Shown here piece by piece: positions 17,196-51,646 of a stretch of 64,000 nt of DNA. Source of the DNA: an uncultured Gammaproteobacteria bacterium (lineage in GTDB: Bacteria > Patescibacteriota > Microgenomatia > UBA1406 > HO2-37-13b). The stretch is taken from NCBI GenBank assembly GCA_964422025.1, contig CAYQYZ010000002.1, positions 3,765 to 67,764 on the forward strand, given 5' to 3'. Both the position numbers and the translations under genes were made by a program. The notes below the pieces were generated by a model that was given only the letters and a program-made list of their open reading frames with translations, ran no database searches and was not told the origin of the DNA. Each line of letters starts with the position of its first letter. The first letter of the stretch is position 1.

Positions 17196-20100
17196 ATGGC
17201 AACAATTACAATCGATCGAAGTATTAATGCAGATGATGCATTTGCAATGTCTGCGGGTATCACATTTGTTGCTCTCGCATCTGGATCTGCATCATACCAA
17301 ACTCAACCGACAGGTATTACCACGTGGACAACAGCGACTATTGTTCAATCCTCTGCTTGGCAATCTGTGTGTTATGGAAACAATATTGTTGTTGCAGTAA
17401 GCTCCACATCTGGAACAATCGCTGCTACTTCCCCGGCTGGTGTCACCGCGACATGGACATTACGGACAATGCCCGCAACAGCAAGCTGGTATGCAGTTGC
17501 ATATGGCTTATCGAAATTTGTCGCAGTGACAGGTGGTGCTTCAACTGTTGGAGCTTATTCGATTGACGGAGCAAAGTGGACACTCACGGGTGCACTGACA
17601 ACAAGCGGAGACTGGAGAGCCCTGACTTTTGGAAATGATCGCTTTGTTGCACTTTCGTACAACAGCACAAACACGAACTATTCAACAAATGGTACAACGT
17701 GGAGTGCAGGAGGTGCACTTCCTGCGACTCGTAACTGGACATCGGTGACCTATGGAGAGAGCACCTTTGTCGCAGTTGCCTCAGGAACTGATAAAGGAGC
17801 ATACTCGACAGACGGCGGAGTCAACTGGACAGAAATGACGATGCCATCATCTTCAAACTGGAATTCGGTCACGTATGGAAACGGAACGTTTGTCGCTGTA
17901 AGTAATACGTCGGGGACTATCGCAGCATATTCTGCTAATGGTATCGCTTGGACTTCTGCAACACTCCCAAACACACGAACCTGGGTTGCTGTCGCATTTG
18001 GGAATAACCTATTCACAGCAATTGCCAGCACTTCAACAACAGGAGCAGCATTTAGCTATGACGGTGTCAGTTGGAGTGGAGGCTCCATTGCAACTGTTTC
18101 GCAAGCAATTAGCTGTATGTGCCACACGCCCACCACCTGGAACTCAAACGACACACTTGTTATTACAAACAATTCAACTCTCACTGTCAATACAGACCAA
18201 AGTAAATTCTGGGGCTTCATAACCCTCACGAACGGAAAACTGCTCATTACAAATTCATCTACATCCACGGGTATCCGCTTTACCATGGGTCGCGTATCTG
18301 GGGCAGCTGCCGCGACTATCACTCCGGGATCAGGTATTGGAGATATTGAAATTACGGGAGACTGGATCGAGTTAGGTACCGGAGATGGAAGCTCTGGACA
18401 AACTATGACAGCCCCCTTCTCAGACTACATTGCGGCGCTCTGGGTCGAAACGGCATCTGGTTCGGGAATCTATGAACAGTGGCTCAATGCAACCGGCTCA
18501 TACAGCGACGCGTCCCCTATTCTCCGCGAAGGATTTGCAGCAATCGGGTCAGGTAGACGAGGTAAATTTTTCATCCAACAGGCAAATGCATCTCCGTATG
18601 GACCAACTATCCTCAACGGGACAGATGGAAGTATCGCACAAAAACTCATTACTGTTGACTCAACCACAGGACTCTATCCAGGCGCTTCGATTCTTGGCCC
18701 CGGAATCCCTGCAAACACGGTCGTGAATCGGGTCATTTCATCCACCCTCCTTGAAACAAATGCCATCTCCACGACTGAACTCTCCCCTGATTGGACCTCA
18801 GTCGCATATGGAAACAGTGTTTACGTGGCAGTGTCCGGTACCAGCTCAAACATAGCAGCAACATCTGCTGATGGGGTTACCTGGACCAAACGAACACTTC
18901 CATTTGTGGCTAACTGGAACTCAGTTTGTTATGGAGCAACGAGTGCCTTGTTTGTGGCAGTCTGTTCAGATGTGACGACAACTGGAGGAACTGCCATTGG
19001 GTCGAGATTTTGTGCAACAAGCCCTGATGGCATTACGTGGACAAGGCGTGCTATTCCACTCCCTTCTGTACTTGCTCAAAACTGGACATCAGTTGCTACC
19101 AACGGCACAAGCTTTGTCGCAGTTGGATCACTTGCAGACGGAACCGCCACGACAGTAGGTGCGTATTCTGCTGACGGGATCACCTGGTCAGCATCAACCA
19201 TGACCTCAGCAATATGGCGTTCAGTCACCTATGGTGCTGGTGCGGCCAACAGATATGTTGCCGTTTCAAGCACGACTATTTCTAACTGGGACGCGGACGG
19301 AACAGGCACATGGACAAACGGTGGTGCTATGACATCCGCAAACTATTTGAGCATCGCATGGAATGGAACGCGCTTTTATGCAGTTTCTGGTTCAAGCACG
19401 GTCAGTATGTGGTCCACAGATGCTACATCTTGGACGACGGGTGCTGTACTGAACAACTCGACGAGTCGCGGAGTCGCTTGGGACGGAACAAACTTCGTAA
19501 TCGTTTCAACAACAAACTCAGTTAACACATCCAGAACCCCTGCAGGTACGACGGGGACGCTCACCAACACAACCATGGCAGCAGCCAATGCAAACAACTG
19601 GACGGCGGTGTGCGCAAATGGAACAACGTTGGTAGCTGTATCATCCTCATCAAACTTGAGAAGTGCAGCGTTGACCTCCACAGACTCTGGAGCCAACTGG
19701 ACACTTCAAACGGGAACTCCTCTGGACGTATCACTTACCTGTTATAACCCGTATGTATCCCAACTTTCAAATACAGTCGAATTTGGCGACAACATCAATG
19801 GAAATAAGGTTCCCTCAGGGGCAAAAGTCAGATGTCCCAACATCATGTTTACATCTGCAGTGCCCGTCAACATCCAAACAGCATCCTCCATCGTCGGAGC
19901 AAACATGGTCATGACTGCAGGAGGATCACTTGTCGCCAATACCTGCTTGTTTGATGAGTCATACAACACCTTTAATCAGGCAGAAACACTTTCCCTCACA
20001 AATGTTGGTTTCTCTATCCCACCACTCATCAATGAATCGTATGGTGTCACGTTTAATAGTGTTGGCTTTGCCCTTGAGCCAGTCCGCCGGTATTACACCT

Positions 20101-23100
20101 ACTCAGCGACTATTGGTTCGGATGGCTGGTTTACTCGCGATAGACGTTACGGAGCTGGAACGACCACTTGGACATACTTGAATAATGCAAGCATCACTGA
20201 TTTTAATTACTGCGTTGGCTCGCCAAAAGCACTCCAAGTGGCAGTTTCTTCAGTAACCGCCCCTGCGCCAATGTTAACCATCTCGTACACACAAAACTCA
20301 ACGTGGAGCTATGTCCGCTTTTACGCTCTCAATTGTGTCGCTTCCTTTCAAGATGCATTTAACTTCCTCACGAACTTTAATGACAACACGATGGAGCACC
20401 TGGAAATGTACGGTGTTGCCCCCATGCTGTTTCAGACTTCAAGCGGAAATACGTTTACAGATGTACGCATTGCAGAAGATATGTTTAATGGATATAGAAG
20501 CTTTCCGACCACGGGTGCACGCATCGGCAATGATCCAACTGCGCAGGCTAAACTCGTCGATGACACCAAGTACTATCTGAAAGTCCGAACTTTTTATGAC
20601 TGGAACAATCTTTCAAATTATGCAGAAGGCCGAACAGTATCTGCAACGCCGTTTATTGGAAGTAAATTTTTCCCAGCAATATTTGGAGCAATAAATACCG
20701 CCACTCGTGCCGTCACTCTGACATGGATCAGGCGTGACCCTACATCCAGCGGTGCAGCGGGAACGACGACGTATCAAATATTTAGAAGCACTTCACCAGG
20801 CTTTACTCCCAGCTCTGCAAACAGAATATTTGACACTTTGACCGTCGCAACCGTTTCATACCTCAACGGTTTTGTCGCGACCATAACCGCCACAGCGTCG
20901 CCCGTAAGAACAATTACGTTTGCTGCAGCAGGTAGAACAATCACCCTTGGTGGTGCTGGTGCAGGAAGCTTTACAACCGCAGGATTTGTGGCTGGAGGAA
21001 ATGTGGTTGTAGCCGGAACTGTTTCTAACAATGGCACGTACACCATACTATCTTTTACAGCGACTGTCATCACCCTGACCACCAATCACACCAATTTAGT
21101 CAATGAAACTGCTCCAAACGGCGCAACTCTCGATGGTCAACCACCTGTAAACGGCACAAGTTACTACTATAAATTACGCAAGCACGATGCAATCCTCACG
21201 GGTATAACAAGTGCTTCAGGGACCGTCGCAACGACTACCCTCACAACAGCTGGAAACTTTAATACGGGTCTTGGGTCAGTCATCAACCTTCAAGGAATAA
21301 GCGGGCAAACCAAAATCAGGATTCCCGTCAGATCTACCACCAACTTTATGGCAGCGAACATTTTCCCTGGCCTCACCCTTGCAGGAACAGGTATCGGATC
21401 AGGGGCAAAGGTTGTGAGCATCGACACCGCATGGCAGATAACCGTCGATGTGACCAATTCATCGACGTTTGTTGGGACAACAGCCACTTTGGGGTTAGCC
21501 AACGGGACAGCGCCTGACAACATCTACGTTGTTGGGCCCGGAATCGCCCGCCCAACACGCGTGGCATCTATCACAAACTCGACCACTTTAGAGGTTGATA
21601 CCGCATTTATTGCAACCCTTTCTGCTCAGGCGATATTTTTTGAATATGGGACAGACAGCGCAGAAGTTGAAGTTACCCCAAGCGGTCCGACTACTGCCGC
21701 ATTTAACTTCCTTACTCAATCAAATGACTTCACCCATGCCAACTGGGTAAAAACAAATCTCACCGCGACAGCAAACCAAGTCTCGGGACCAAATGATATT
21801 GGCTTTGGTATCGCCGCAGCTCCAACCGCCGACCGACTCGTTTCGACCGGCCCAACAGCAAAGGCTGTACAGACTATCACCTCATACCTGGAAGTCGGCG
21901 CTATCTATACTTTCTCCGTATATATCAGATGTGACGCTCATCATTATTCCCAAACTGTCTCGGGAAAGATTTCTATCAATACAACAGTTGCCACGGATCA
22001 AGCATTTACAGCATCAGGAGTCTGGCAACGAATCTCAGCTACTTTTACCGCAACCGCCGTCACGCATGAATTTACCATTCAGATGACAACAGAGGGAAGT
22101 TACATCTATGCCTCAAGTGCTCTGGTTAATCAGGGCTCCTCCGCTCTTGTCCCCATCACCACCACCACCGTAAAAACAGCTGTGGCAAGCGGTGGACGCA
22201 CACTGACTTTTGCATCAGGTATCGACGGAGCCAATACCATTACCGCCTCATCAGGCGACTTCACAACAGCACCTGCTTTTGCAATTGGAGACAGTATTAT
22301 TGTGCAAGGAACATCTGATAATGACGGCACCTATGTATTATCTGCTGTAACAACTACTGTATTGACAGTGACTCCAGCACAACCCCTAGTTACGGGTGCG
22401 GGAGCACAATCATCTGGCTCCATCGTCGGGTCTGTTCTTGCCTCAGCAGCCCAAGAGCTTACCTCTGCACTTGCGTGGTGCCGAGCAACTGGAGGTAACA
22501 CGTCAAATCAGGGTATTGAAGTTGCTTTTGCTGCATTGCCAACTGGATCATTTTGGACTGAGCTGTATGTTGGGACGACAGCAGGCTTTACACCATCTTC
22601 TATTAATCGCGTTGGTTATACTCTTAACTTGCTTGGAGCTTCAACCTCCTTTTACCTCCTCAACTCCAATAACAACATTATCGACACGCTCGCTCAGGAA
22701 GGATACGGCGGATATTCTGGTACACGAGTATTCTTGCGAGGTGCTTCGAACAACAAATTCCTCGATTGGAACATTGACTTTAACTATGGTGCTGTACCTG
22801 CTATCGGAGATGTCGCAAATCTTTCCAACGACAATATCTTTGACGACTTCACCGTCAAAAACTTTAGAAACCTCAACACCTCACCGTTTATTTCTATTAA
22901 TGATAGTAGTGGACTTACCCTTCAAAACATCACCATTGAGCAAGCAAATGATATCCCCTATTCACTTCAATCATTAAACACCATTCTCAAGGGTGTGACG
23001 GGAGCCAATGCCGCTCAAGCAACGAACGCCACAACATATTTCTTCGGAGCAGGCGCATTTGCAACTGACGGACTTGCCATCGCCTATCAAGCCGTGTATG

Positions 23101-25967
23101 ACAACATCTTTTATGAACTGTACCATTCGCCCACAACCGGTGCACTTCACATGCTTTTCAACGCAAGCTCATCTGACACACCACCGTATACTATCGTCTC
23201 GGGCACACCAGCATTTGGAAACAACGGCCGTTTGTATTTGCGTACTGCTGGTGACTCGATCGAATACACCTGGCCATACCGTATTTATGGTATTTCCAGC
23301 TTCCGCGATATCATCCTCAAAAAAAATGGATTGGATCTGGGCTCAAGCTTGGACGGACTTGAATCACTTCTGGTTGAATTCAAAATCGATACGGGTACAG
23401 GAACAACGTACGGCGCATACCAAACTGCTACCCCAGCCAACCTTGCAGCCACATCTGTTTCCACCACCACCGGATTCCTTCTGAAAATCCGCATTACCGC
23501 CCAACCCGGAATGCTTTTTTCTACTCAAACAAATGCCTTTGTTGTCGGAGAAGAAATTGAAGGAACTACGTCTGGCGCAACAGCTACCGTTGATGATGTG
23601 CACAACCTAACAACAACAACGGGATGCGTCATATTGTCAAATATCACCGGCTCATTTATTCCCACAGAACTTGTTCGTCGTAATTCTGACAACCAAACGC
23701 GCGCAACGAACGTCGTAACCAACACGCAGTTCGCCCTGTTCCCATCCTTTAACAGCTATATTGACGGTTTGCAGATTTTTACCAATACCGTTGGCCCTGG
23801 TGATTATCCTGGGAGAATCGTGGACATTGTTCTGACCAACGTAACCACCGGAAGTACCTATTATGTATATAAAACGTCGGGAGGGTTACTTCTGGGCTCT
23901 GGGACAGCCAGTGGCGCGACAGTCACCATTCCAAATGTGGCGTATGTGACTGATTTTGGTATCACCATCCGTGTCCGCAAGTCCAGCGCCGTCACAAAGT
24001 ACCTTCCATTTGAAACGCAGGCTACAGTAACCGTTGCTGGTGCAAATGTATTTACATCGCAAATCGAAGATGCTATTGTAGCAGCCTCCTACGGTTCAAT
24101 TGGTAGTGACTTTACGATAAATTACACGCAAAAGCGTATCTATCACTCATCGGGAAGCTCTGTGTACTCCGTGAATGCTTTGTATTCATATCTACAAGAT
24201 GTGTTTGATGAAGAATCACAATTAGATGACACCGTACCAATGTCCGCACAAACGCCAACCGAATACACGCTCATCAACGGATGGTTCATGGATGATGAGT
24301 CATTTAAATACCTCACGGGTGGGGCTGTCCAAACATCGGGCTGGACGGGTGGTGTTATTCGCATGAAAGCATATGATGCGACCGGTGCTGGTACAGCGTT
24401 TGGATCGTCAGATATCGGTAAAGTGATTACGGAGACAGATAGCGGTGACACGGGAACCATCCTTGCCTATGATGAACGCACAGCCACTGAGATCGGCTAC
24501 GTGTGGATCCGCCCTGATACTCTGGCTGACACGTTTGCCGATGTAAACTCTGCCTACACCGTAGCGACAAGCTCCGCAGCCGGCGTCTTTACTGCAGCCA
24601 GCAGCACTGGTGAAACGATTTGGTCCAATATATTCTCGCTCGGTACGCTTGTAAGTGGTTCTACACTAGATGTCTGGCAAAATGATGTCCAAATCACTCC
24701 ATGGTGGACCAGCGGGCATATAGATATCTTGGTGAAGGTAAAAGAAATGGGAACAGAAACAGATAGCGGCAACATCACCGTTCTTGCCCGTAAATATTCT
24801 ACTCTCTATGACCATTTTGTCATCGATGCATCTACCGGTCGCAACCCGGTGCCTTTGGCGGCTTTTGCCGATGGAAATAATGAAACAGCATCGGGCACCG
24901 TAGCCGGATATTCAGATATAACATTTGATTTTGGGGCTTCAAGTCAAGATCTTGGGAATGGCAACGGAAGCCAACCGTATGATGTGGTCATTGACGGAGC
25001 CGGTCGACCACTCACTGAAATATATGAATACCTCAAATATGTAACGCGTTCAGGCTCTGGAACAACCCTTAACGGTGTTAACGGTGAGTTCTATATTGCG
25101 GTCGGCGACTACCGTTTTAACTACGATACAGAAGCATCTGGACCATTTGTGGAGGGTGAGCGAATTAACGGTAGCGGCGCCGTGTATGGCTATCTTGTGT
25201 CGCTTATTGACAGCGGAGCAACGGGCACCATGACGCTGCGCAATGTTCATGGAAGTTTTGCAGATGATATGGCAATCTCAGGAGTAACATCAGGTGCAAC
25301 AGCGGCCGTTAATGGAGCCCCGGAAGCAATTACTGCTTCTAAGCAAGCGCCTTTCGGAACCTTTGCCGGAGGGTCATTTTTCGGAGCCCGCGGCGTATTC
25401 CTAACTAATATGGATATTGCCGACGCCAATAACTATGAATTAATCGATGCAACGAACACCAGTCAAGTTCCACCTGCCACCGTAAACGTCCTGGTAGGAG
25501 GCTTAGTCTCCGGTGACCGAGTGAGCGTTTTCCGAACCACCGGAGCAAACGAAATCATCAATAAAACATATCTCGCTTCTCACGCCACTACCAACTCAGC
25601 AGCAACCACCGCATGGGAAGCAACCGGAGCGATCCCTGCCGACACACCAGCGGCGGGCTTTATTCGTCTTGTAAAGACCGCATCAAGTACTGAAGAGCGC
25701 TTAGAGTACACATCGTGGACGGGTGCTATTTTTACACTTGCAGGGGCGCATGCTGGCGGTTATGGCACCGGCGACACCGCGTATGTACCGTACATTGACG
25801 AACAAGCCAGCAGTACAAGTATTTCCAAGAGTGTTACCTATGTTTCTGATCGTACGGTGATGACCCGAGTTCGAAAAGTTGGCATTCAACCATTCACCAC
25901 CACCGGATCACTAACATCAACGGGTTACTCCGCAACAGCAGTAAGGACCGCAGATACCATCGCATAA
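17196..25967 (+). CDS. Giant (2923 aa) Thr/Ser/Gly/Ala-rich protein: two beta-propeller repeat arrays, beta-helix-like and FN3-like segments, tail-fibre-type jelly-roll module
   Basis: Single uninterrupted ORF. It has about 7+7 repeats of W-x-[SA]-V-x-[YF]-G-x-x-x-F-V-A-V with [ST]-x-[DN]-G-x-x-W (residues ~40-300 and ~530-830). The segment NFLTQSNDFTHANWVKTNLTATANQVSGPNDIG..ADRLVSTG..YTFSVYIRC.. recalls phage tail-fibre carbohydrate-binding modules. No N-terminal signal peptide is present. Confidence 0.9.
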   Translation: MATITIDRSINADDAFAMSAGITFVALASGSASYQTQPTGITTWTTATIVQSSAWQSVCYGNNIVVAVSSTSGTIAATSPAGVTATWTLRTMPATASWYAVAYGLSKFVAVTGGASTVGAYSIDGAKWTLTGALTTSGDWRALTFGNDRFVALSYNSTNTNYSTNGTTWSAGGALPATRNWTSVTYGESTFVAVASGTDKGAYSTDGGVNWTEMTMPSSSNWNSVTYGNGTFVAVSNTSGTIAAYSANGIAWTSATLPNTRTWVAVAFGNNLFTAIASTSTTGAAFSYDGVSWSGGSIATVSQAISCMCHTPTTWNSNDTLVITNNSTLTVNTDQSKFWGFITLTNGKLLITNSSTSTGIRFTMGRVSGAAAATITPGSGIGDIEITGDWIELGTGDGSSGQTMTAPFSDYIAALWVETASGSGIYEQWLNATGSYSDASPILREGFAAIGSGRRGKFFIQQANASPYGPTILNGTDGSIAQKLITVDSTTGLYPGASILGPGIPANTVVNRVISSTLLETNAISTTELSPDWTSVAYGNSVYVAVSGTSSNIAATSADGVTWTKRTLPFVANWNSVCYGATSALFVAVCSDVTTTGGTAIGSRFCATSPDGITWTRRAIPLPSVLAQNWTSVATNGTSFVAVGSLADGTATTVGAYSADGITWSASTMTSAIWRSVTYGAGAANRYVAVSSTTISNWDADGTGTWTNGGAMTSANYLSIAWNGTRFYAVSGSSTVSMWSTDATSWTTGAVLNNSTSRGVAWDGTNFVIVSTTNSVNTSRTPAGTTGTLTNTTMAAANANNWTAVCANGTTLVAVSSSSNLRSAALTSTDSGANWTLQTGTPLDVSLTCYNPYVSQLSNTVEFGDNINGNKVPSGAKVRCPNIMFTSAVPVNIQTASSIVGANMVMTAGGSLVANTCLFDESYNTFNQAETLSLTNVGFSIPPLINESYGVTFNSVGFALEPVRRYYTYSATIGSDGWFTRDRRYGAGTTTWTYLNNASITDFNYCVGSPKALQVAVSSVTAPAPMLTISYTQNSTWSYVRFYALNCVASFQDAFNFLTNFNDNTMEHLEMYGVAPMLFQTSSGNTFTDVRIAEDMFNGYRSFPTTGARIGNDPTAQAKLVDDTKYYLKVRTFYDWNNLSNYAEGRTVSATPFIGSKFFPAIFGAINTATRAVTLTWIRRDPTSSGAAGTTTYQIFRSTSPGFTPSSANRIFDTLTVATVSYLNGFVATITATASPVRTITFAAAGRTITLGGAGAGSFTTAGFVAGGNVVVAGTVSNNGTYTILSFTATVITLTTNHTNLVNETAPNGATLDGQPPVNGTSYYYKLRKHDAILTGITSASGTVATTTLTTAGNFNTGLGSVINLQGISGQTKIRIPVRSTTNFMAANIFPGLTLAGTGIGSGAKVVSIDTAWQITVDVTNSSTFVGTTATLGLANGTAPDNIYVVGPGIARPTRVASITNSTTLEVDTAFIATLSAQAIFFEYGTDSAEVEVTPSGPTTAAFNFLTQSNDFTHANWVKTNLTATANQVSGPNDIGFGIAAAPTADRLVSTGPTAKAVQTITSYLEVGAIYTFSVYIRCDAHHYSQTVSGKISINTTVATDQAFTASGVWQRISATFTATAVTHEFTIQMTTEGSYIYASSALVNQGSSALVPITTTTVKTAVASGGRTLTFASGIDGANTITASSGDFTTAPAFAIGDSIIVQGTSDNDGTYVLSAVTTTVLTVTPAQPLVTGAGAQSSGSIVGSVLASAAQELTSALAWCRATGGNTSNQGIEVAFAALPTGSFWTELYVGTTAGFTPSSINRVGYTLNLLGASTSFYLLNSNNNIIDTLAQEGYGGYSGTRVFLRGASNNKFLDWNIDFNYGAVPAIGDVANLSNDNIFDDFTVKNFRNLNTSPFISINDSSGLTLQNITIEQANDIPYSLQSLNTILKGVTGANAAQATNATTYFFGAGAFATDGLAIAYQAVYDNIFYELYHSPTTGALHMLFNASSSDTPPYTIVSGTPAFGNNGRLYLRTAGDSIEYTWPYRIYGISSFRDIILKKNGLDLGSSLDGLESLLVEFKIDTGTGTTYGAYQTATPANLAATSVSTTTGFLLKIRITAQPGMLFSTQTNAFVVGEEIEGTTSGATATVDDVHNLTTTTGCVILSNITGSFIPTELVRRNSDNQTRATNVVTNTQFALFPSFNSYIDGLQIFTNTVGPGDYPGRIVDIVLTNVTTGSTYYVYKTSGGLLLGSGTASGATVTIPNVAYVTDFGITIRVRKSSAVTKYLPFETQATVTVAGANVFTSQIEDAIVAASYGSIGSDFTINYTQKRIYHSSGSSVYSVNALYSYLQDVFDEESQLDDTVPMSAQTPTEYTLINGWFMDDESFKYLTGGAVQTSGWTGGVIRMKAYDATGAGTAFGSSDIGKVITETDSGDTGTILAYDERTATEIGYVWIRPDTLADTFADVNSAYTVATSSAAGVFTAASSTGETIWSNIFSLGTLVSGSTLDVWQNDVQITPWWTSGHIDILVKVKEMGTETDSGNITVLARKYSTLYDHFVIDASTGRNPVPLAAFADGNNETASGTVAGYSDITFDFGASSQDLGNGNGSQPYDVVIDGAGRPLTEIYEYLKYVTRSGSGTTLNGVNGEFYIAVGDYRFNYDTEASGPFVEGERINGSGAVYGYLVSLIDSGATGTMTLRNVHGSFADDMAISGVTSGATAAVNGAPEAITASKQAPFGTFAGGSFFGARGVFLTNMDIADANNYELIDATNTSQVPPATVNVLVGGLVSGDRVSVFRTTGANEIINKTYLASHATTNSAATTAWEATGAIPADTPAAGFIRLVKTASSTEERLEYTSWTGAIFTLAGAHAGGYGTGDTAYVPYIDEQASSTSISKSVTYVSDRTVMTRVRKVGIQPFTTTGSLTSTGYSATAVRTADTIA

Positions 25968-39035: not shown

Positions 39036-40292
39036 TTATGGTTTATAGTTATACCAATTGTGACCTGGAGAACTTACCAATGTAGTTAAGTGTTCAACGA
39101 TTCTACGCGCATTACGACTCGCAGAAACTTCTGTTGCACTAAGATCTTCAGGTGGTCGAAATCCCATTTTTGACCAAAATGGTTTTGCTGAATCCTTGGG
39201 CCTATTAACTCCCCAAATAGCCCTACCCGTATCGGCGATATACTGCTCGAATTCCTGTACAACTTTCCTTCCAACACCTGTTACGCGTAGGTCTTCCCTA
39301 ACATAAAGATGAGTAATTAATGGAGGTAAATTTCTAATTCCTTCTGTTAAATCTATGTTCAATTGTGTAAGTACCTTCTTATCAGTATTTACAATACCGT
39401 AACTTCCACTCCATGAATCTGATAGAACTCTCGTATTAATTCCATGCATACTAAGCCTTTCTTGTAATGCATAAGCAGCATCTCCATCAGATATTCTGTG
39501 CTTTATTAGTCGTTCTACCGATCCCTCTGAAACTCTTGCAACACCTCTTTCCACATCCCCCGGACCAGGACTGAGCATGCCTAAAGCTAGAATTCCCGCT
39601 GCTGCTCCCCTACCAAGTGATTTATAGGCAGAATCAATTGATTCTGAGCCAGCAGATGTTCCGTTGATCTTGTCACCAATCCACGTAGCAATTCCTCCAA
39701 TTCCAGAAACAGCTTCTGTTGACGCCATGAGTGTTCCTACTGAATTAAGACCCTCTTCTCCCATAAACTTTTCACCTTTTTCATCTCCACCGCACTGACC
39801 AATGGCTTTCCAGAAATATTTCATACTCGGATCCTGCTGACATAAATCATGGCCAGTTGGGTCTGCCGCCATGACGGGATTGTTTGAAACATATCCGTAG
39901 CGAACAGGTCCTTTGACTGAGTCAGGTTGGATAAAAAGCGCGCTTGTTGGGTTGTAATAACGGGCGTTGTAATTATAAACTGAAGATTCATCAGTTACCT
40001 TTTGTTGACCGGTGTATTGTTTGTTCGTCTCTCTCAGAGGGACTTGAGTTATCGAGGAGCCATATGGATAGTATGAAGGGGCGTTTGAAACTGTTCCTTT
40101 CTCAGAAATAACTACTTTGGTGGATGAAAGATAATCTGAAACGAGGATTTTTTTGGTGGTAGCTTCATCCTTTTTCTCTACAATTACCGTAGATTTATGC
40201 AAAGGAATCTGCAAACGTGAAGTATGTGAAGCAGCAAAAGCAACGCGTGGAGAAAATAGGACCACGAAAACAGCCAGCACAACAAGGTACAT
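39036..40292 (-). CDS. Polymorphic toxin: signal peptide + RHS/YD core-end motif + GNAT-like acetyltransferase C-terminal domain
   Basis: MYLVVLAVFVVLFSPRVAFA. YYPYGSS..YTGQQKV..SVYNYNARYYNPTSALFIQPDSVKGPVRYGYVSNNPVMAADPTGHD is an RHS repeat-associated core end. The C-terminus LYVREDLRVTGVGRKVVQEFEQYI...FWSKMGF fits the GNAT motif A pattern R-x-x-G-x-G. Confidence 0.8.
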   Translation of the reverse strand: MYLVVLAVFVVLFSPRVAFAASHTSRLQIPLHKSTVIVEKKDEATTKKILVSDYLSSTKVVISEKGTVSNAPSYYPYGSSITQVPLRETNKQYTGQQKVTDESSVYNYNARYYNPTSALFIQPDSVKGPVRYGYVSNNPVMAADPTGHDLCQQDPSMKYFWKAIGQCGGDEKGEKFMGEEGLNSVGTLMASTEAVSGIGGIATWIGDKINGTSAGSESIDSAYKSLGRGAAAGILALGMLSPGPGDVERGVARVSEGSVERLIKHRISDGDAAYALQERLSMHGINTRVLSDSWSGSYGIVNTDKKVLTQLNIDLTEGIRNLPPLITHLYVREDLRVTGVGRKVVQEFEQYIADTGRAIWGVNRPKDSAKPFWSKMGFRPPEDLSATEVSASRNARRIVEHLTTLVSSPGHNWYNYKP

Positions 40293-40352: not shown

Positions 40353-41189
40353 TTAATCAACCTTTACCTGTACCGAAGGAGTCATTGAAAGTTTAAGATA
40401 CGCAGATTTGATGTTTTTTGTGTTTACGGCTTTTATGAAAGCGGCAATGTTTTCAACCAATTGTTTGTCTTCAAACGATTTTTTACCCACTAATTGATGA
40501 AGCAATGGGAATTTAGCTTCAGATTTAAATCGCAACGCTCCACCTGAATATTTCTTAGCAACTTCTTCTGGTTTCTCAGAAACGGTGCCGTTTTTAGGGT
40601 TTGGCATAAGTCCTTTAGGTCCTAAAACTCGTGCGACCTTGGCTAATTTTGGCATAAACGATGGATGAGTGATAAGTACATCAAAATCGATTTTTCCACC
40701 TTCTATAGCCGCAAGTAATTCATCGGTCACGACCGCTACTTTTACTGATTTTCCGGTACCATGTGGAAGCGTGACTTCACCTTTTATACCTGCTTCGACT
40801 AAATTAAGGTGCAGTTCGACAGATTCATCGAATTTAGCTGTAGATATTTTTTTCAAAAGGGAAACGCCTTGAACGACTGTGTAAACTTCATCACTCGTGA
40901 CTTGTCGCTTGGCTGCTCGGTAGTTTTTTCCACGAGCGTGTGCTTTAGATGATTTTTTTCCGCCAGCTGGCGGATTTTTAGCATCTTTTTTTTCTGAAAC
41001 TTCATCGCTCAACTCTGTAGGTTCAAAAGCAGCGGTCACTTCGGGAGATTCAATGACTTCTTTTTCTTTTTTAACCTTTTCAGCTTCGACGCTTTCAGCC
41101 TTTTTAGCTGCACGACGAACAGCAGCATCTTGAGCTTGTTTTTTTTCAACGTCTTCGTTTCCGATTAATTTGGTTCTAATTTTTCCCAT
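40353..41189 (-). CDS. rplA: Ribosomal protein L1 with ~90-aa charged N-terminal extension
   Basis: ...KNYRAAKRQVTSDEVYTV..., VELHLNLVEAGIKGEVTLPHGTGKSVKVAV, ARVLGPKGLMPNPKNGTV. Confidence 0.9.
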   Translation of the reverse strand: MGKIRTKLIGNEDVEKKQAQDAAVRRAAKKAESVEAEKVKKEKEVIESPEVTAAFEPTELSDEVSEKKDAKNPPAGGKKSSKAHARGKNYRAAKRQVTSDEVYTVVQGVSLLKKISTAKFDESVELHLNLVEAGIKGEVTLPHGTGKSVKVAVVTDELLAAIEGGKIDFDVLITHPSFMPKLAKVARVLGPKGLMPNPKNGTVSEKPEEVAKKYSGGALRFKSEAKFPLLHQLVGKKSFEDKQLVENIAAFIKAVNTKNIKSAYLKLSMTPSVQVKVD

Positions 41190-41194
41190 AGGTG

Positions 41195-41617
41195 TTATTC
41201 AGTTTCAATTCCCATTGAACGGGCGGTTCCATACACAATATTAACTGCTTGTTCTACGTCATTTGCGTTCAAGTCATCCATTTTTTCTTTTGCAATTTTT
41301 TCAGCAATTGCGCGTGAAAGCTTACCGGCTTTTTCACGTCCGGCATTTCCACTGCCTTTGGCAATTCCTAGTTCCTTTTTAATCATGGCGGTTACTGGAG
41401 GAAGTTTGGTAATGAATGTGAATGATCGATCTTCGTAAACGGTAATGACGGCTGGAATGATTTGACCTTTTTGGTCGGCAGTTTTAGCATTGTATTCTTT
41501 AATGAAGTCCATGATTGGAACTCCATGTTGCCCTAAAACTGGTCCAACAGGAGGAGCAGGAGTTGCTTCACCAGCAGGTAAGTTAATTTTGATCAATGTT
41601 TTTATTTGTTTTGCCAT
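41195..41617 (-). CDS. rplK: Ribosomal protein L11
   Basis: [31 protein letters not shown]... Confidence 0.95.
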
Positions 41618-47898: not shown

Positions 47899-48345
47899 AT
47901 GAGTAAAAATAACCCAAATCGGTATAATGTACCTGCTATTACAAGCCAATTTGAAGATTATTTAGTTAGTAAAAACCTCAGCAAAATTTCTCGAAAAAAC
48001 TACATATCTGATCTTCGTATGTTCTTAACATGGATCGATGCACAGGAAGACGAACTTGAATTCAATTTGAGTAGCATCGTTTTATATAAGCAGTTTCTTC
48101 AGACTAGCAGACTGCCTGTTCAATCGATAAACCGGTCACTATCATCGATTAGAGCATACGGAGACCTACTTATGCACAGTCAGGAACAGTTTTCTAACCC
48201 TGCCCGTTTAGTTGCAAACATCCCTACCAAAATACCAGTGGTTCAAAGCAAGCTTATACAGGAATTTTCGCGATCAAACGAACTTTCGAAGGCTGACGCG
48301 TTAGCCCTTTCCGAATTCTTAAAACTTTCATATGACCACACCTAG
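47899..48345 (+). CDS. Stand-alone phage-integrase N-terminal SAM-like domain protein (no catalytic domain)
   Basis: FEDYLVSKNLSKISRKNYISDLRMFLTWI...SINRSLSSIRAYGDLLM matches XerD-type N-domain patterns. At 148 aa there is no R..HxxR..Y domain. Confidence 0.6.
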   Translation: MSKNNPNRYNVPAITSQFEDYLVSKNLSKISRKNYISDLRMFLTWIDAQEDELEFNLSSIVLYKQFLQTSRLPVQSINRSLSSIRAYGDLLMHSQEQFSNPARLVANIPTKIPVVQSKLIQEFSRSNELSKADALALSEFLKLSYDHT

Positions 48346-51300
48346 TATTAATCAGTATCGTCAAAAGCTTCAAAGCCAAGGACTTACTCCCGACGAGGTG
48401 GAGCGAAGAGTGCTTTTGGCGAGTAGCTTTACTGGCTGGATGCAAAAAAAGCAAACTCCCGCAGTTACCTCACCCACACAACCTACTGTGCCTGCCGCGC
48501 ATTCAAATAAAGGCTGGCTATATTCCTTAATAGTCGGGAGTATTGTTTTACTATTCATTATTGGAGCAGGCATAGCTAAAACCCAGCAAAAACCATCGGT
48601 ATTTGAATCTAAAACAGCCTACAAGCCCAATACTCGTACGCTTTCGTTCTCGGGAAAGCTTACCGATGCTAGTGGATTTATTATAGCGAATAAAACAAAA
48701 GTGGTATTGTCGCTTTATAACGACTCGCTCGGAGGAAAGCAGGTATATTCTAGCGGTGTTTGTAATGTGACCCCAAACCTACAAGGAACCTTTCAAACTA
48801 CGATTGGCGGGGCTTGTGGAAGCCCTATTCGCGAAGATGTGTTCACAGCAAATCCTCAGCTTTATTTAGGCATAAAAATCGGGAATGATTCAGAAATGCA
48901 ACCGCGCACCCCGATTACAACTCAAGCCGCAGCAAGTAACACTCCCACCGGCGACTTGGCCGTAAATGATGACGGAGAGATTGTATTATCAACTGAAACC
49001 GCTGCCATACGATCTACACTTGAATCAGCGAACTTTGCTATTACGAGTGCCCGGGGAATACTTCTGCAAAGCAGTCTTGATGGCAATGTCACACTTTCAG
49101 CTACTGAATCAGGACAGATCAAATTCCTAGTGGGCGGCGAACAAGTAAGCACAATTAAAGCAGGTGGCGAACTAGCTATAACTGGCAACATCATTCCAAC
49201 TAATACAGGTATTCAAGATTTGGGTTCAAGTAACAATCGGTTTGGATCATTATACGTAGAAAACATTTACCCGGGTTTATCCGGAGTATCTGGCTATTTG
49301 AAACGAGAAGGAAATACGCTATCGACAACTAATGCAGGTGATGAATTTATACTTGGATCATCGGTTGCCAGCCTGGCACGGATTCGTTTGTCTCCTTTTA
49401 CCAGCGATAAGAGCTGGTTAAATGCGGGTAACTTTGGAATCGGAACCACCAATCCCACGTTTAATTTGGATGTAGCAGGCACAGCCCGTGTTGGAGGTGA
49501 TTTGACTATTGGGGCTTCAGGAAGCCAAAAAATAAACTTCAATGCCTCTACCCTATCGTTCGCAAATGCAACAGGGGTAGCGCTACCAGGCAACACAGTA
49601 AACGCGCTCGCCTTCCAAACAGACCTATTAAGCCTTGATACAAAAAATAATCGAATGGGTGTGGGAACAATTGCCCCGGCGAGCAAACTGAGTGTGGTCG
49701 ATTCTCAAGCAAACCTATCAACGCTTCGGGTTGAGAATACAAACAGTGACGCTAGTAGTAAAGGCATACTTATTAAGTTAGGCTTCACCGGGGGTGGAAA
49801 CACGAGTAATGAATTTATTACCTTCGTAAAAGGCACCGACGAGGTCCAAGGTAAAATTCAAAGCAACGGAGCAAGCGGAGTCAGTTTTACTTCAGGAGGA
49901 GGAGATTTTGCTGAGTACTTTCTAAAAGACGCAAGTCTGAATCCGAATCACTCTCTCTGGAGCCCAGGCACGCTTATGTGTTTGGTTGCCGACGGTATGG
50001 TTCGCCCCTGCGATGTAACATATACTAATGTGCTTGGAGTGATTTCAAATAACGCTGCATTTGTGGGAAACAGCAAGGGAGAATACGATGAAAAATACAC
50101 GCTCGTTGGTTTAGTTGGGCAATTACCCGTTAAAGTTTCCTCAACATCAGGAACCATTGCTTCAGGCGACCCCCTTTCCTACTCCACTACTCCCGGGGAA
50201 GTTGCTCGCGCAACTCGTAACATGAGAATTGTGGGATTTGCTCAGGAAAGTTACAATGGAACAGGTACTAAAACCATTCGCGCGACTATTCAGCCTGGAT
50301 ATTATGAGGTCGCTCAAAAAGACCAGCTTGCGTATGATGGAACAGCGTTGACCACTCCTCAAGAGAGCTTGGGAGGATTTCTCTCCCGTTTCACCAACCT
50401 AATTGCAAAAACAATTCAAGTGGAAGAAAAAATCACGTCGCCCATAGTTGAAACGGATAATTTAATAGCTCAAAAAGCTCAAATAAAGACCTTGCAAACT
50501 CAAACAATTCAGCCTGTGCCTAAAAGTAACGTTGTTATCGATTTAGCTCCCGAGGAGGTCGAGTCCACCCCATCGGCTCCAATAGGCAGCTCTCGATCTG
50601 GCCCATTGTCAAAGCTCCTGATTCAAGGATTTAATAATCAGACCGTCGCTTCATTTGACGCGCAGGGCAATGCAACAATTTCGGGCACATTACAAGCACA
50701 GAATGTCGAAGCGCAGAACGTATCCAGCGAATCTGTGCAAGCTGGTTCTATAGAGAGCTCTCAATTTACCACAAAAGAAGCAAGCGTTTCAGGCACACTC
50801 ATAGCCAATCGTGTCGAAGCAAGCAATATTACTGATATTGAAAAAATGGTTAATGAATTAAAAAATGCCCCATTGCCCGATGCTCGGCTATATGAAAAAG
50901 ACACGTCCGTGTTTAATTCTGTAGATCCTATTAATGATATTACTGTCTTAAACAAAGCTAGTTTTTACGATGCTTCTGTGGCTAATTCCCTGATGGTCGG
51001 GAGTGTGTCTATTAAAGATGACACTATTACCGGCTTAGCTTTTGAACTCAAACTTACCGCCTTAGCCTCAATTAACTTGCTCGACGGTGCAGTTATGATT
51101 GCCCGTGATGGAACATTGACAACTAAGGGAGAGGTAATCGCCCAACAAGGAGTTCGAACTAATCGCCTTTCACCAATTAACAAAGGAGAAAGCATTAAAG
51201 TAAGCCTAAGTGATCAAGCACCGACTCCGGCAAGTTTGCAGATTTTAAATGACGAAGCTAAAGAAGTTGCATCCATTAATGCTTCTGGCTCAGCCTACTT

Positions 51301-51646
51301 TGGTGGGGGAATTGGAGTAAATACATTCATTGCCGATAGTGGCGATGTTCAAAATAAGTCAAGTCTTACTGCGGCAATTTCTACGAACGCGCAATCTGCT
51401 GGTACCGGAGAAATTCCTAGTGGTAAGAGTAATATCATTATTTACAACGAAAAGCTCTCCAAAAACTCTTTGGTATACCTAACCTCTACCTCAAAGACCG
51501 AGAATCAGCCGGTGTATGTTTCTGAAAAAAGAAGTTGTGAGACAACCGTCACTCCTACTCCAACAGACTGTAAAAACTATTTCGTAGTCACCATCGACAG
51601 CCCAATAAAAACAGCCGCTACTTTTAACTGGTGGATTATTAATTAG
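48332..51646 (+). CDS. 1104-aa membrane-anchored surface protein with tail-fibre-like repeats
   Basis: N-terminal cytoplasmic stretch plus TM (WLYSLIVGSIVLLFIIGAGIA). GNFGIGTTNPTFNLDVAGTARVGGDL, GVGTIAPASKLSVVDS. It also carries a module shared with the atp-operon first gene (VLGVISNNAAFVG...GTIASGDPLSYSTTPG). Confidence 0.85.
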   Translation: MTTPSINQYRQKLQSQGLTPDEVERRVLLASSFTGWMQKKQTPAVTSPTQPTVPAAHSNKGWLYSLIVGSIVLLFIIGAGIAKTQQKPSVFESKTAYKPNTRTLSFSGKLTDASGFIIANKTKVVLSLYNDSLGGKQVYSSGVCNVTPNLQGTFQTTIGGACGSPIREDVFTANPQLYLGIKIGNDSEMQPRTPITTQAAASNTPTGDLAVNDDGEIVLSTETAAIRSTLESANFAITSARGILLQSSLDGNVTLSATESGQIKFLVGGEQVSTIKAGGELAITGNIIPTNTGIQDLGSSNNRFGSLYVENIYPGLSGVSGYLKREGNTLSTTNAGDEFILGSSVASLARIRLSPFTSDKSWLNAGNFGIGTTNPTFNLDVAGTARVGGDLTIGASGSQKINFNASTLSFANATGVALPGNTVNALAFQTDLLSLDTKNNRMGVGTIAPASKLSVVDSQANLSTLRVENTNSDASSKGILIKLGFTGGGNTSNEFITFVKGTDEVQGKIQSNGASGVSFTSGGGDFAEYFLKDASLNPNHSLWSPGTLMCLVADGMVRPCDVTYTNVLGVISNNAAFVGNSKGEYDEKYTLVGLVGQLPVKVSSTSGTIASGDPLSYSTTPGEVARATRNMRIVGFAQESYNGTGTKTIRATIQPGYYEVAQKDQLAYDGTALTTPQESLGGFLSRFTNLIAKTIQVEEKITSPIVETDNLIAQKAQIKTLQTQTIQPVPKSNVVIDLAPEEVESTPSAPIGSSRSGPLSKLLIQGFNNQTVASFDAQGNATISGTLQAQNVEAQNVSSESVQAGSIESSQFTTKEASVSGTLIANRVEASNITDIEKMVNELKNAPLPDARLYEKDTSVFNSVDPINDITVLNKASFYDASVANSLMVGSVSIKDDTITGLAFELKLTALASINLLDGAVMIARDGTLTTKGEVIAQQGVRTNRLSPINKGESIKVSLSDQAPTPASLQILNDEAKEVASINASGSAYFGGGIGVNTFIADSGDVQNKSSLTAAISTNAQSAGTGEIPSGKSNIIIYNEKLSKNSLVYLTSTSKTENQPVYVSEKRSCETTVTPTPTDCKNYFVVTIDSPIKTAATFNWWIIN

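Follow-up and report, generated by a model that had tools for sequence, protein, structure and literature searches.

The gene at positions 39036-40292 on the minus strand of the 64-kb window (the whole 64,000-nucleotide stretch of contig CAYQYZ010000002.1 analysed here) raises the question of what a small, predicted secreted protein with an RHS-associated core does beside the ribosomal protein gene rplA, with a tRNA-like element and no evident immunity gene behind it. Based on sequence comparison, the protein is best described as a member of a shell-less or split, Sec-exported and immunity-free RHS-core effector family of Roizmanbacteria, here carrying an orphan GNAT-like tip. An earlier interpretation made without database searches (the sequence-only reading) had called it an RHS-core polymorphic toxin, and the conserved N-terminus and variable C-termini of 27 aligned relatives agree with that proposal. 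We hold it very probable that the protein is a polymorphic effector. The gene and its modules are the following.

39036-40292, minus strand: whole gene, 418-amino-acid (aa) predicted secreted RHS-core effector (from the list of open reading frames (ORFs); stop codon 39036-39038)
40233-40292, minus strand: signal-peptide-like segment, aa 1-20, MYLVVLAVFVVLFSPRVAFA before AS (read off the sequence)
39849-40232, minus strand: two or three beta-hairpins and the RHS-associated core, aa 21-148 (TIGR03696 and PDB alignment)
39907, minus strand: recombination breakpoint at codon ~128, just after QPDS (blastn)
39543-39848, minus strand: linker A, aa 149 to ~250 (alignment of relatives)
39039-39542, minus strand: tip, aa ~251-418, an orphan GNAT-like domain (Pfam)
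39153-39317, minus strand: acetyl-CoA-binding half of the tip, aa 326-380, with R336-x-x-G339-x-G341 and F372-W-S-K-M-G-F378

The polymorphism of the family carries this description. A search of 5.8e9 proteins yielded 32 relatives, 27 of which were used in the alignment. Their first ~150 aa (aa 1-148) are common at 44-84% identity, and complete divergence follows, the alignment falling apart past DPxG, so that at least eight tip types are found in the family. Pfam assigns GNAT domains to three tips (of two unrelated kinds), AvrPphF/HopF-type ADP-ribosyltransferase (ART) domains to two, and Tae4 amidase, PL14 polysaccharide lyase and transglutaminase-like domains to others, and a HEAIH metalloprotease motif (HExxH) was spotted by eye in the tip of P0008. 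The family is so far seen in Roizmanbacteria-type genomes of the candidate phyla radiation (CPR)/Patescibacteria (Microgenomates), and each of its cassettes is a complete ORF that has a start codon and a signal peptide. No description of this CPR effector family was found in the literature searched, the coverage of which is incomplete. The metagenome-assembled genomes (MAGs) that contain L006, L007 and L008 show synteny of the Roizmanbacteria type and are 81% identical in nucleotides to the window here, and their taxonomic label looks wrong.

The exchange of tips can be followed in close relatives. The sister strain L023 is fully syntenic with the window, with flanks 95.7% identical, and blastn homology to L023 (95.7%) and to L007 (81%) ends at 39907 and resumes at the stop codon of glyA at 38729. 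The intervening 1.18 kb, comprising the core end, linker, GNAT tip, tRNA and terminator, is replaced in L023 by another tip and a BrnT/BrnA pair. The 3' part of the gene has been exchanged through recombination within the RHS core and, as judged from the alignments, this is the signature of polymorphic-toxin recombination. In addition, the window protein forms a subfamily with P0002-P0007 and P0009, in which aa 149 to ~250 are also common, ending in SP(D/G)PGD, and are followed by unlike tips. Within this subfamily, the adjacent P0004 and P0003 (L004, 8556-11362) are identical over ~240 aa (beta-hairpins, core and linker A) and then unrelated, one tip being a HopF-type ART and the other an unknown domain. 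The alignment of the pair indicates that a gene conversion or a duplication took place recently, with the tip exchanged at the SPDPGD boundary, and that this boundary is a second recombination point besides the RHS core. The C-terminal region of ~270 aa in the sequence-only reading was right in length and in being GNAT-like at the sequence level in its last part, but the toxin tip does not fill it, and its first part, aa 149 to ~250, proved to be a linker common to unlike tips.

The conserved part of the protein was resolved into an export signal and an RHS core. The 418-aa ORF with a signal-peptide-like N-terminus was confirmed, and an independent sample contains a 99.5%-identical copy of the gene (contig L024), whose protein (P0001) differs slightly from the window protein. 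The N-terminal segment has a hydrophobic core of 12 residues followed by a putative A-x-A site, and a signal-like hydrophobic N-terminus ending in FAQ/FAA is kept in all 27 aligned relatives. In the AlphaFold2 (AF2) model of the full protein, the helix at aa 2-13 is the sole block with a pLDDT of 88. The canonical RHS core end was also confirmed, as the NCBIfam model TIGR03696 (RHS repeat-associated core) matches aa 74-148 (39849-40073) over its full length with 56.2 bits (cut-off 32.5, E 3.7e-15). The core ends in P139-x4-D144-P-T-G147-H148, with His and not Leu or Trp as the terminal residue. When compared with PDB sequences by phmmer, aa ~52-148 align to the C-terminal core of TccC3, YenC2, bacterial Rhs and the mosquito SGS1, and D124, D144 and G147 correspond to D651, D674 and G677 of TccC3. 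In TccC3, these three residues are critical for aspartyl autoproteolysis and lie within the PxxxxDxxG motif (PMC7861908). R111, D124, P139, D144, P145 and G147 are invariant in the 27-sequence alignment, and by this comparison the catalytic aspartate pair of the core autoprotease (D124, D144) is conserved; the cleavage itself is a prediction. No RHS_repeat or YD match was found in the window protein with Pfam and NCBIfam, and only ~50 aa of beta-hairpins lie between the signal peptide and the core.

All parts of the gene appear to be maintained. Linker A contains a Cys pair (C151/C167), Gly/Ala-rich hydrophobic segments (196-206 and 229-240) and the end SPGPGD, and linker modules searched alone against Pfam gave no match even at E<=10. 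Compared with the 72% orthologue in L001, the ratio of nonsynonymous to synonymous substitution rates (dN/dS) is 0.11 over the whole gene (core 0.08, tip 0.14). The proportion of nonsynonymous differences (pN) is 0.10-0.20 (0.20 in the linker) and that of synonymous differences (pS) 0.62-0.78, which means that synonymous sites are saturated. Because pN is low while synonymous sites are saturated, every module encodes functional protein, and these ratios indicate that purifying selection acts on all modules.

The tip was examined by profile, structure and literature searches. In the 270 aa that follow the core (H148), the sole match lies at aa 326-380, where Acetyltransf_10 (PF13673; 26.9 bits, cut-off 23.6, E 5e-6) and Acetyltransf_1 (PF00583; 20.8 bits, cut-off 20.7) score above and Acetyltransf_7 and FR47 below their cut-offs. 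These four GNAT families match in register, each over the motif A/motif B half of the profile. The 72% orthologue P0002 passes the cut-offs alone (PF13508, 28.3/27 bits; PF13673, 26.3/23.6; PF00583, 22/20.7), and the matches in both orthologues span only beta4-alpha3-beta5-alpha4. For the pyrophosphate loop of motif A, the window protein has R336-V-T-G339-V-G341 and P0002 has K-G-K-G-I-G. FWSKMGF (372-378) fits motif B save for Trp373 in place of the customary Tyr (xFYxKxGF), a replacement seen in both orthologues. The true tip of ~165 aa has the size of a GNAT domain, and the flanks of the match (~78 aa before and 38 aa after, A2 numbering) are near those of the GNAT PaiA (1tiq). Profile matches to PDB sequences, accepted up to E 10, were weak, about two-thirds of them being acetyltransferases. 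When the tip was searched exhaustively with HMMER in a set of 1.84e9 representatives, only its own cluster and two spurious repeat matches came up, and a profile of the two orthologous tips found nothing at E<=1 in the database of 5.8e9 proteins. AF2 models were not taken as evidence, beyond noting the families of Foldseek matches; with the model at pLDDT 43, the top 50 were essentially all GNAT-type acetyltransferases, and the secondary-structure order of the tip would be compatible with a GNAT fold. We regard it as likely that the tip has this fold. BLASTP detected no similarity between the window tip and P0021, the other kind of GNAT tip in the family, and by this comparison the two are independent acquisitions.

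Neither GNAT nor acetyltransferase is mentioned in the classical catalogue of polymorphic-toxin domains (PMC3482391), and no Rhs or contact-dependent inhibition (CDI) effector with a GNAT tip was found in the incompletely covered literature. GNAT toxins of toxin-antitoxin (TA) systems acetylate charged tRNAs and ItaT acts on Ile-tRNA (cited in PMC13617354), and what the sequence-only reading said of ItaT was correct in this respect; nothing ties the present GNAT to the ItaT subfamily. No TacT, AtaT, ItaT or other named TA toxin was among the PDB (E up to 10) or NCBIfam matches, and no antitoxin ORF of the ribbon-helix-helix (RHH)/DUF1778 type lies beside the toxin, the neighbours being rplA and glyA. 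An aminoacyl-tRNA is one candidate target among several, and it is an unlikely one.

The lack of an immunity gene, which the sequence-only reading had pointed out, holds at this locus and is not peculiar to it. In the spacer 38730-39035, ORFs of >=20 aa exist only where they overlap the tRNA-like element. No immunity ORF follows any cassette in ten non-redundant loci with ~18 cassettes; the gaps between tandem cassettes measure 12-82 nucleotides (nt) in L002, L004, L026 and L027, and rplA-adjacent copies end 14-22 nt from glyA (L007, L001). No small ORF co-varies with the tip for any tip in the loci examined. The missing immunity gene is a family-wide property and not an annotation gap at the window locus. 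Small elements of other kinds occupy this position in some strains: a BrnT/BrnA (CopG) TA pair fills the toxin-glyA slot of L023 (11336-11894), where the window has the tRNA-like element, and a PIN/Phd pair follows the last cassette of L002. Read most simply, small selfish elements gather at the 3' edge of the cassettes, the edge of a recombination hotspot. Because no immunity gene follows any cassette, the effectors are probably aimed at non-kin, which would suit the presumed episymbiotic life of CPR bacteria, and Tae4 or PL14 tips may not fit the producer's own envelope.

The surroundings of the gene contain the following features.

40353-41617, minus strand: rplK (41195-41617) and rplA (40353-41189) (labelled by Pfam on contigs L024, identical, and L023, syntenic)
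38857-38943, minus strand: 8/4 allo-tRNA, anticodon GAU (Rfam tRNA-Sec, minimum free energy (MFE) fold and the definition of PMC5389517)
38815-38843, minus strand: sigma-70-like promoter match, TTGACA-17-TAATAT, TG-extended (consensus scan)
38795-38810, minus strand: segment antisense to the allo-tRNA anticodon arm (38901-38916), 15/16 nt (repeat search)
38750-38773, no strand assigned: hairpin of a bidirectional intrinsic terminator, with an A-run and a T-run at its sides, which ends glyA and the toxin/tRNA unit
37422-38729, plus strand: glyA (serine hydroxymethyltransferase), convergent, the fixed right-hand boundary of the swapped cassette

The identities of rplK, rplA and glyA given earlier were confirmed via identical or syntenic contigs with Pfam labels, and the idea of an insertion beside rplA has to be given up. 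The order secE-nusG-rplK-rplA-toxin-<glyA-trpS is found in L007, L009 and L023, each with a different tip, and L011 shows secE-nusG-rplK-rplA-toxin as far as the contig end, again with a different tip. Because this order recurs in relatives, the rplA-adjacent toxin is not a recent insertion but occupies a fixed site. The gap between rplA and the toxin is 60 nt on the same strand and holds no terminator, and rplK, rplA and the toxin are likely co-transcribed; no terminator-like site was seen between rplA, toxin and tRNA. An L7/L12-like ORF (rplJ/rplL) was not found in the window by a simple motif scan, which is weak evidence.

Several further observations were made at and around the site. The L1 product of rplA (40353-41189, minus strand) has 278 aa and a Lys/Glu/Ala-rich N-terminal extension, which is also present in L007, L011 and L023, and in these genomes and that of the window rplJ-rplL is not downstream of rplA. 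An 11-nt imperfect inverted repeat (10/11; 38726-38736 and 39044-39054) brackets the 306-nt spacer and may be due to chance or mark the ends of a small inserted element. Further away, at 47899-51646 on the plus strand, a 148-aa ORF (L023 counterpart Phage_int_SAM_1) precedes a protein of 1,104 aa whose Peptidase_G2 domain (intramolecular-chaperone autoproteolysis) is characteristic of phage tailspike/fibre proteins, and this pair is conserved in L023.

The tRNA-like element turned out to be of a particular class. ARAGORN, and Rfam at its gathering threshold, report no tRNA in the window, and a relaxed Rfam search gives tRNA-Sec at 38860-38944 on the minus strand (45.5 bits, gathering 47, E 4e-8). 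The MFE fold (-39.7 kcal/mol) is a clean cloverleaf whose stems measure 8 bp (acceptor), 4 bp (T), 6 bp (D, closed by a 4-nt loop) and 6 bp (anticodon, loop CUGAUAC); the variable arm has 5 bp, and G73 and an encoded CCA are present. Allo-tRNAs are defined by a 12-bp acceptor branch split 8/4 or 9/3, a tRNA-Sec-like D stem of 6 bp with a tetraloop, a long variable arm and G73/U73 (PMC5389517; Mukai et al. 2017), and by the Rfam alignment and the independent MFE fold the element is an allo-tRNA in this sense. The aberrant GAU tRNA with a Ser-like body of the sequence-only reading is therefore a real cloverleaf with that anticodon, its identity being refined to an 8/4 allo-tRNA. A 7/5 "tRNA-Val(cac)" from relaxed ARAGORN (-ps85), among nine obvious false positives, was rejected for the 8/4 fold backed by Rfam and MFE. 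The identity rules of seryl-tRNA synthetase (SerRS) are an established basis for expecting Ser charging of such an allo-tRNA(GAU). A long variable arm and G73 make a SerRS substrate (PMC5389517), and on this argument the element would be charged with Ser and, if active, would read Ile codons as Ser. The same study finds allo-tRNAs often near TA systems, lists Clostridia, Proteobacteria and Acidobacteria as hosts, and reports that the most abundant group, with the anticodon UAU, seems inactive in translation.

The distribution of the allo-tRNA bears on its role. It shares the strand of the toxin, whose stop codon lies 91 nt before it, and no terminator separates the two; the independent contig L024 carries it unchanged. 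L001, the sole other locus with this tip (72%), has a 22-nt spacer and no tRNA, and the allo-tRNA was not found elsewhere in the family when blastn-short was run over 22 loci and Rfam (E<=0.01) over ten, the second GNAT-tip cassette, P0021, being covered as well. When JGI metagenome contigs were scanned for the pattern, the single match was due to chance (a canonical tRNA on L025, whose GC content is 66%), and two scans of viral contigs (IMG/VR) gave none. In its simplest reading, the allo-tRNA is a separate strain-specific small element in a variable slot and not part of the toxin mechanism. The antisense segment, ~50 nt downstream, sits between the promoter-like match and the terminator, and its 11-mer core is confined to these two sites within the 64 kb, against an expectation of 0.04. 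Folding of a 205-nt transcript yields an MFE structure in which both arms pair and the cloverleaf is lost (z = -7.0), and promoter-like matches in the region are no more numerous than in shuffles. This segment may be a regulatory antisense element or small RNA, or the scar of a partial inverted duplication.

It has also to be asked where the shell of this RHS protein is. Relatives of the gene lie behind large shell genes at five loci.

L002, 1057-11257: shell gene and cassettes
L004, 2351-11362: shell gene and cassettes
L008, 126-7431: shell gene and cassette
L026, 3757-14031: shell gene and cassettes
L027, 1781-12041: shell gene and cassettes

The shell proteins have 1,940-2,090 aa, the first cassette overlaps the shell end by about 20-25 nt in all five loci, and two to three cassettes follow in tandem in L002, L004, L026 and L027. 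Both full-length shells translated (L002, L004) have an N-terminal membrane anchor. The L004 shell, the sole one scanned, contains TIGR01643 YD repeats and no TIGR03696 core, and faint RHS_repeat/TEN_YD-shell Pfam marks are present on the L002, L004, L026 and L027 shells. The three translated shells (L002, L004, L008) end in ...IYYFGVYEDEYTEE (pattern YYFGxxEDEYxxE), and the cassettes open after the signal peptide with hairpins and "xxDxLSSTK...YYPYG", which is normally the shell-to-plug continuation. One MAG contains a shell locus (L002/L006) as well as an rplA-adjacent cassette (L007), and one sample yielded both the sister strain L023 and the shell locus L027. To locate the split point, the last 599 aa of the L004 shell were compared with PDB, which gave weak repeat-level matches only (E 0.02). 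The window itself contains a 2,923-aa ORF (17196-25967, plus strand; marginal EPTP as sole Pfam match, no NCBIfam match), which was rejected as an RHS shell, being unrelated to the YD shell of the relatives.

A split Rhs can be proposed from these loci and from what is known of RHS cocoons. In TcB/TcC toxins, the cocoon is built from two chains. The conserved C-terminal region is described as spiralling into the cocoon and sealing it (PMC8765631). On these grounds, the ~400-aa proteins would be interchangeable plug-plus-cargo subunits for a separately encoded YD-repeat shell, a tentative proposal that we place somewhat below an even chance. Otherwise, the protein would be a secreted effector that cleaves itself and acts on its own.

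The explanation that accounts best for these results, and which we hold to be somewhat more probable than its negation, is a Sec-exported polymorphic effector of a Candidatus Roizmanbacteria cell with four modules, namely a signal peptide, a minimal RHS "plug" (the core), a linker for delivery and an enzymatic tip that can be exchanged. Once exported, the RHS core would cut past H148 and free the linker and tip, and it would either act alone or dock as the missing C-terminal plug of the membrane-anchored ~2,000-aa YD-repeat shell. The Gly/Ala-rich linker may aid the passage of the tip across the target membrane, and the tip would be a GNAT-fold acetyl-CoA-dependent acetyltransferase with its target molecule in a foreign (host or competitor) cell. 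Because acetyl-CoA is required, such a tip would act only in the foreign cytoplasm; the chances that it is a cytoplasmic toxin of non-kin cells seem evenly balanced. No immunity protein would be needed if the producer exports the protein unfolded through Sec and the targets or entry receptors are non-self, and the allo-tRNA(GAU) would be an independent small element outside the toxin mechanism.

Several points weigh against this explanation. The usual P1 residue of RHS-core cleavage is Leu or Trp, and P1 at the predicted cut is His here and Asn, Tyr, Lys or Gln in relatives, although P1 is polar or charged in 29% of TcC proteins (PMC7861908). The 64-kb window contains no shell gene, as judged by a motif scan for YD-repeat ORFs. 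We know of no demonstration that an RHS core folds or cuts without a shell. As for the tip, catalysis may be atypical or absent with Trp373 in motif B, the GNAT call is a 55-aa match, and sequence comparison does not reveal the N-terminal half of the fold. The AF2 model of the tip, made from two sequences, has a pLDDT of 43 and is unusable; that of the full protein, made from 27 sequences, also reaches 43 and exceeds 65 only in the signal helix and first hairpins, and the Foldseek matches have E values of 0.008-0.06 and TM-scores of 0.22-0.33. Finally, the tRNA is in the exact immunity-gene slot, is seemingly co-transcribed and was swapped together with the tip.

The last point could mean that tRNA and toxin are linked, as the sequence-only reading suggested. 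The tip would then acetylate an aminoacyl-tRNA such as Ile-tRNA(GAU), and the allo-tRNA would be a decoy, a resistant substitute or an antidote. The sole terminator beyond the tRNA, its exchange with the tip between sister strains and its unchanged state in the second sample favour such a link, as do the location of allo-tRNAs near TA systems, the other Ile anticodon (UAU) of their commonest group (PMC5389517), and the acetylation of charged tRNAs by GNAT TA toxins, with ItaT on Ile-tRNA (cited in PMC13617354). However, L001 has the same tip and no tRNA, the other family loci scanned also lack it, and the slot holds BrnT/BrnA in the sister strain and nothing in other relatives. Self-intoxication in the cytoplasm is not an expected problem for a toxin with a signal peptide, the PDB searches revealed no specific similarity to TacT, AtaT or ItaT, and the G73, G1-C/G2-C/A3-U acceptor and long variable arm lead one to expect Ser and not Ile charging (PMC5389517). 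The proposed link thus finds no support in the family, and we consider it highly improbable. The same slender chance is given to a two-part unit, swapped into this strain as a whole, in which a secreted GNAT acetylates charged tRNA in the target cell and has the allo-tRNA as its RNA partner in the immunity slot, the latter acting there as a decoy, resistant substitute or regulator and being itself curbed by the downstream anti-anticodon-arm segment. Of the two observations which the sequence-only reading had named together as speaking against it, the absence of the tRNA from orthologous loci was made, and an immunity gene elsewhere was not found in the loci examined.

Other readings do without the tRNA. 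The protein could be a classical bacteriocin directed at kin or competitors, with an immunity protein encoded elsewhere or too small or overlapping to be seen, since classical Rhs, CDI and WapA systems always pair the tip with an immunity gene, Tae4-like tips are classical antibacterial effectors, and only 64 kb of the genome is visible. Polymorphic immunity should travel with the tip, however, and the ten loci with ~18 cassettes show no co-varying ORF; the segment swapped between the window and L023 holds no candidate save BrnTA, which is a self-contained TA pair, and this makes a classical bacteriocin quite unlikely. A tip that is no toxin, that is, a secreted or surface enzyme or a dead binding module acting on the symbiont envelope or host surface, would fit the replacement of the motif-B Tyr by Trp373, the lack of an immunity gene, the constitutive expression implied by the ribosomal-protein operon position, and a family that includes a PL14 polysaccharide lyase, which is not necessarily toxic. 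But acetyl-CoA is not available outside cells, which leaves an extracellular GNAT without its donor, the scaffold also carries tips that are typical toxins (HopF-type ART, Tae4 amidase, HExxH protease), and the R-x-x-G-x-G pyrophosphate loop is kept under purifying selection. We judge a non-toxin tip unlikely, and the accompanying view that the RHS core is a mere recombination and processing handle is doubtful to a similar degree. The gene could also be a silent orphan cassette, an unexpressed reservoir for retipping a main Rhs gene like the orphan rhs fragments of enterobacteria. In favour of this, relatives have arrays of two to three cassettes after a large YD-repeat gene, long identical stretches between paralogues are typical of gene conversion, and no clear Shine-Dalgarno sequence precedes the toxin ATG. 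Nevertheless, the cassettes are complete ORFs with start codon and signal peptide, the YD-repeat gene scanned (L004) has no core in which tips could recombine, the present copy is 60 nt behind rplA with no terminator between, and strong purifying selection extends over its whole length, so that a silent cassette appears very improbable.

Compared with known Rhs/YD-repeat toxins (E. coli and Dickeya Rhs, P. protegens RhsA, B. subtilis WapA, TcC), the effector considered here shares the core, the PxxxxDxxG motif and both aspartates, the hypervariable toxin right past the core, tip exchange in the core and several paralogues per genome. As in WapA, export is apparently by a Sec signal peptide and not by the type VI secretion system. 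In contrast, it has 418 aa instead of 1,400-2,500 aa and no YD-repeat shell within, the shell of its relatives is a separate gene without a core (one shell scanned), the CPR family lacks an immunity gene, and P1 is His, Asn, Tyr, Lys or Gln instead of Leu/Trp. The window protein is not a canonical Rhs, because the in-protein YD shell and the downstream immunity gene are both missing. The TcB/TcC proteins of Tc (ABC) toxins offer a precedent for an RHS cocoon of two polypeptides with core and toxin on the second chain, and the window core aligns best to TccC3, YenC2 and SGS1 in PDB. TcC, however, gives ~650 aa of shell, whereas a CPR cassette would give the plug only, no TcA-like translocator was seen, and both CPR partners have their own export or anchor signals; assembly of CPR shell and cassette in trans would be an extension of this analogy. 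Orphan rhs/cdiA-CT cassettes are likewise arranged in tandem after a large repeat-protein gene, with a homologous 5' handle and gene conversion, but the classical ones are without translation starts and export signals and always keep the immunity gene.

With the GNAT TA toxins (TacT, AtaT, ItaT, KacT), the tip has in common the acetyl-CoA-binding motifs and the presumed use of a GNAT domain as a growth-inhibiting warhead, and they offer a plausible mechanism, the acetylation of the amino group of aminoacyl-tRNA. The resemblance is at the superfamily level only: the PDB matches are generic GNATs, the window gene is without an RHH/DUF1778 antitoxin, its tip is fused to a secretion/processing scaffold, and motif B has Trp for Tyr. 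The allo-tRNA matches those described (PMC5389517) in the 8/4 split, D and anticodon stems of 6 bp each, a tetraloop on the D stem, the length of the variable arm, G73, a non-Ser anticodon and the closeness to toxin genes, and it differs in its CPR host, its anticodon GAU and the 16-nt segment antisense to its own anticodon arm that follows.

In conclusion, the family is a compact, lineage-specific set of symbiont-host effector candidates, whose warheads are swapped at a fixed site behind rplA. To our knowledge, it is largely unknown how the ultra-small and probably episymbiotic CPR/Patescibacteria manipulate or kill their hosts. The GNAT-type tip is an addition beyond the classical polymorphic-toxin catalogue (PMC3482391), and the allo-tRNA, which standard tRNA finders miss here, extends the allo-tRNAs to CPR bacteria. 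If the two-part unit were true, polymorphic toxins would have a first immunity or partner element made of RNA, and allo-tRNAs a first function. A possible natural "split Rhs" would inform cocoon assembly and cargo loading, and, if this proposal is true, CPR bacteria would possess interchangeable, immunity-free and host-directed effectors.

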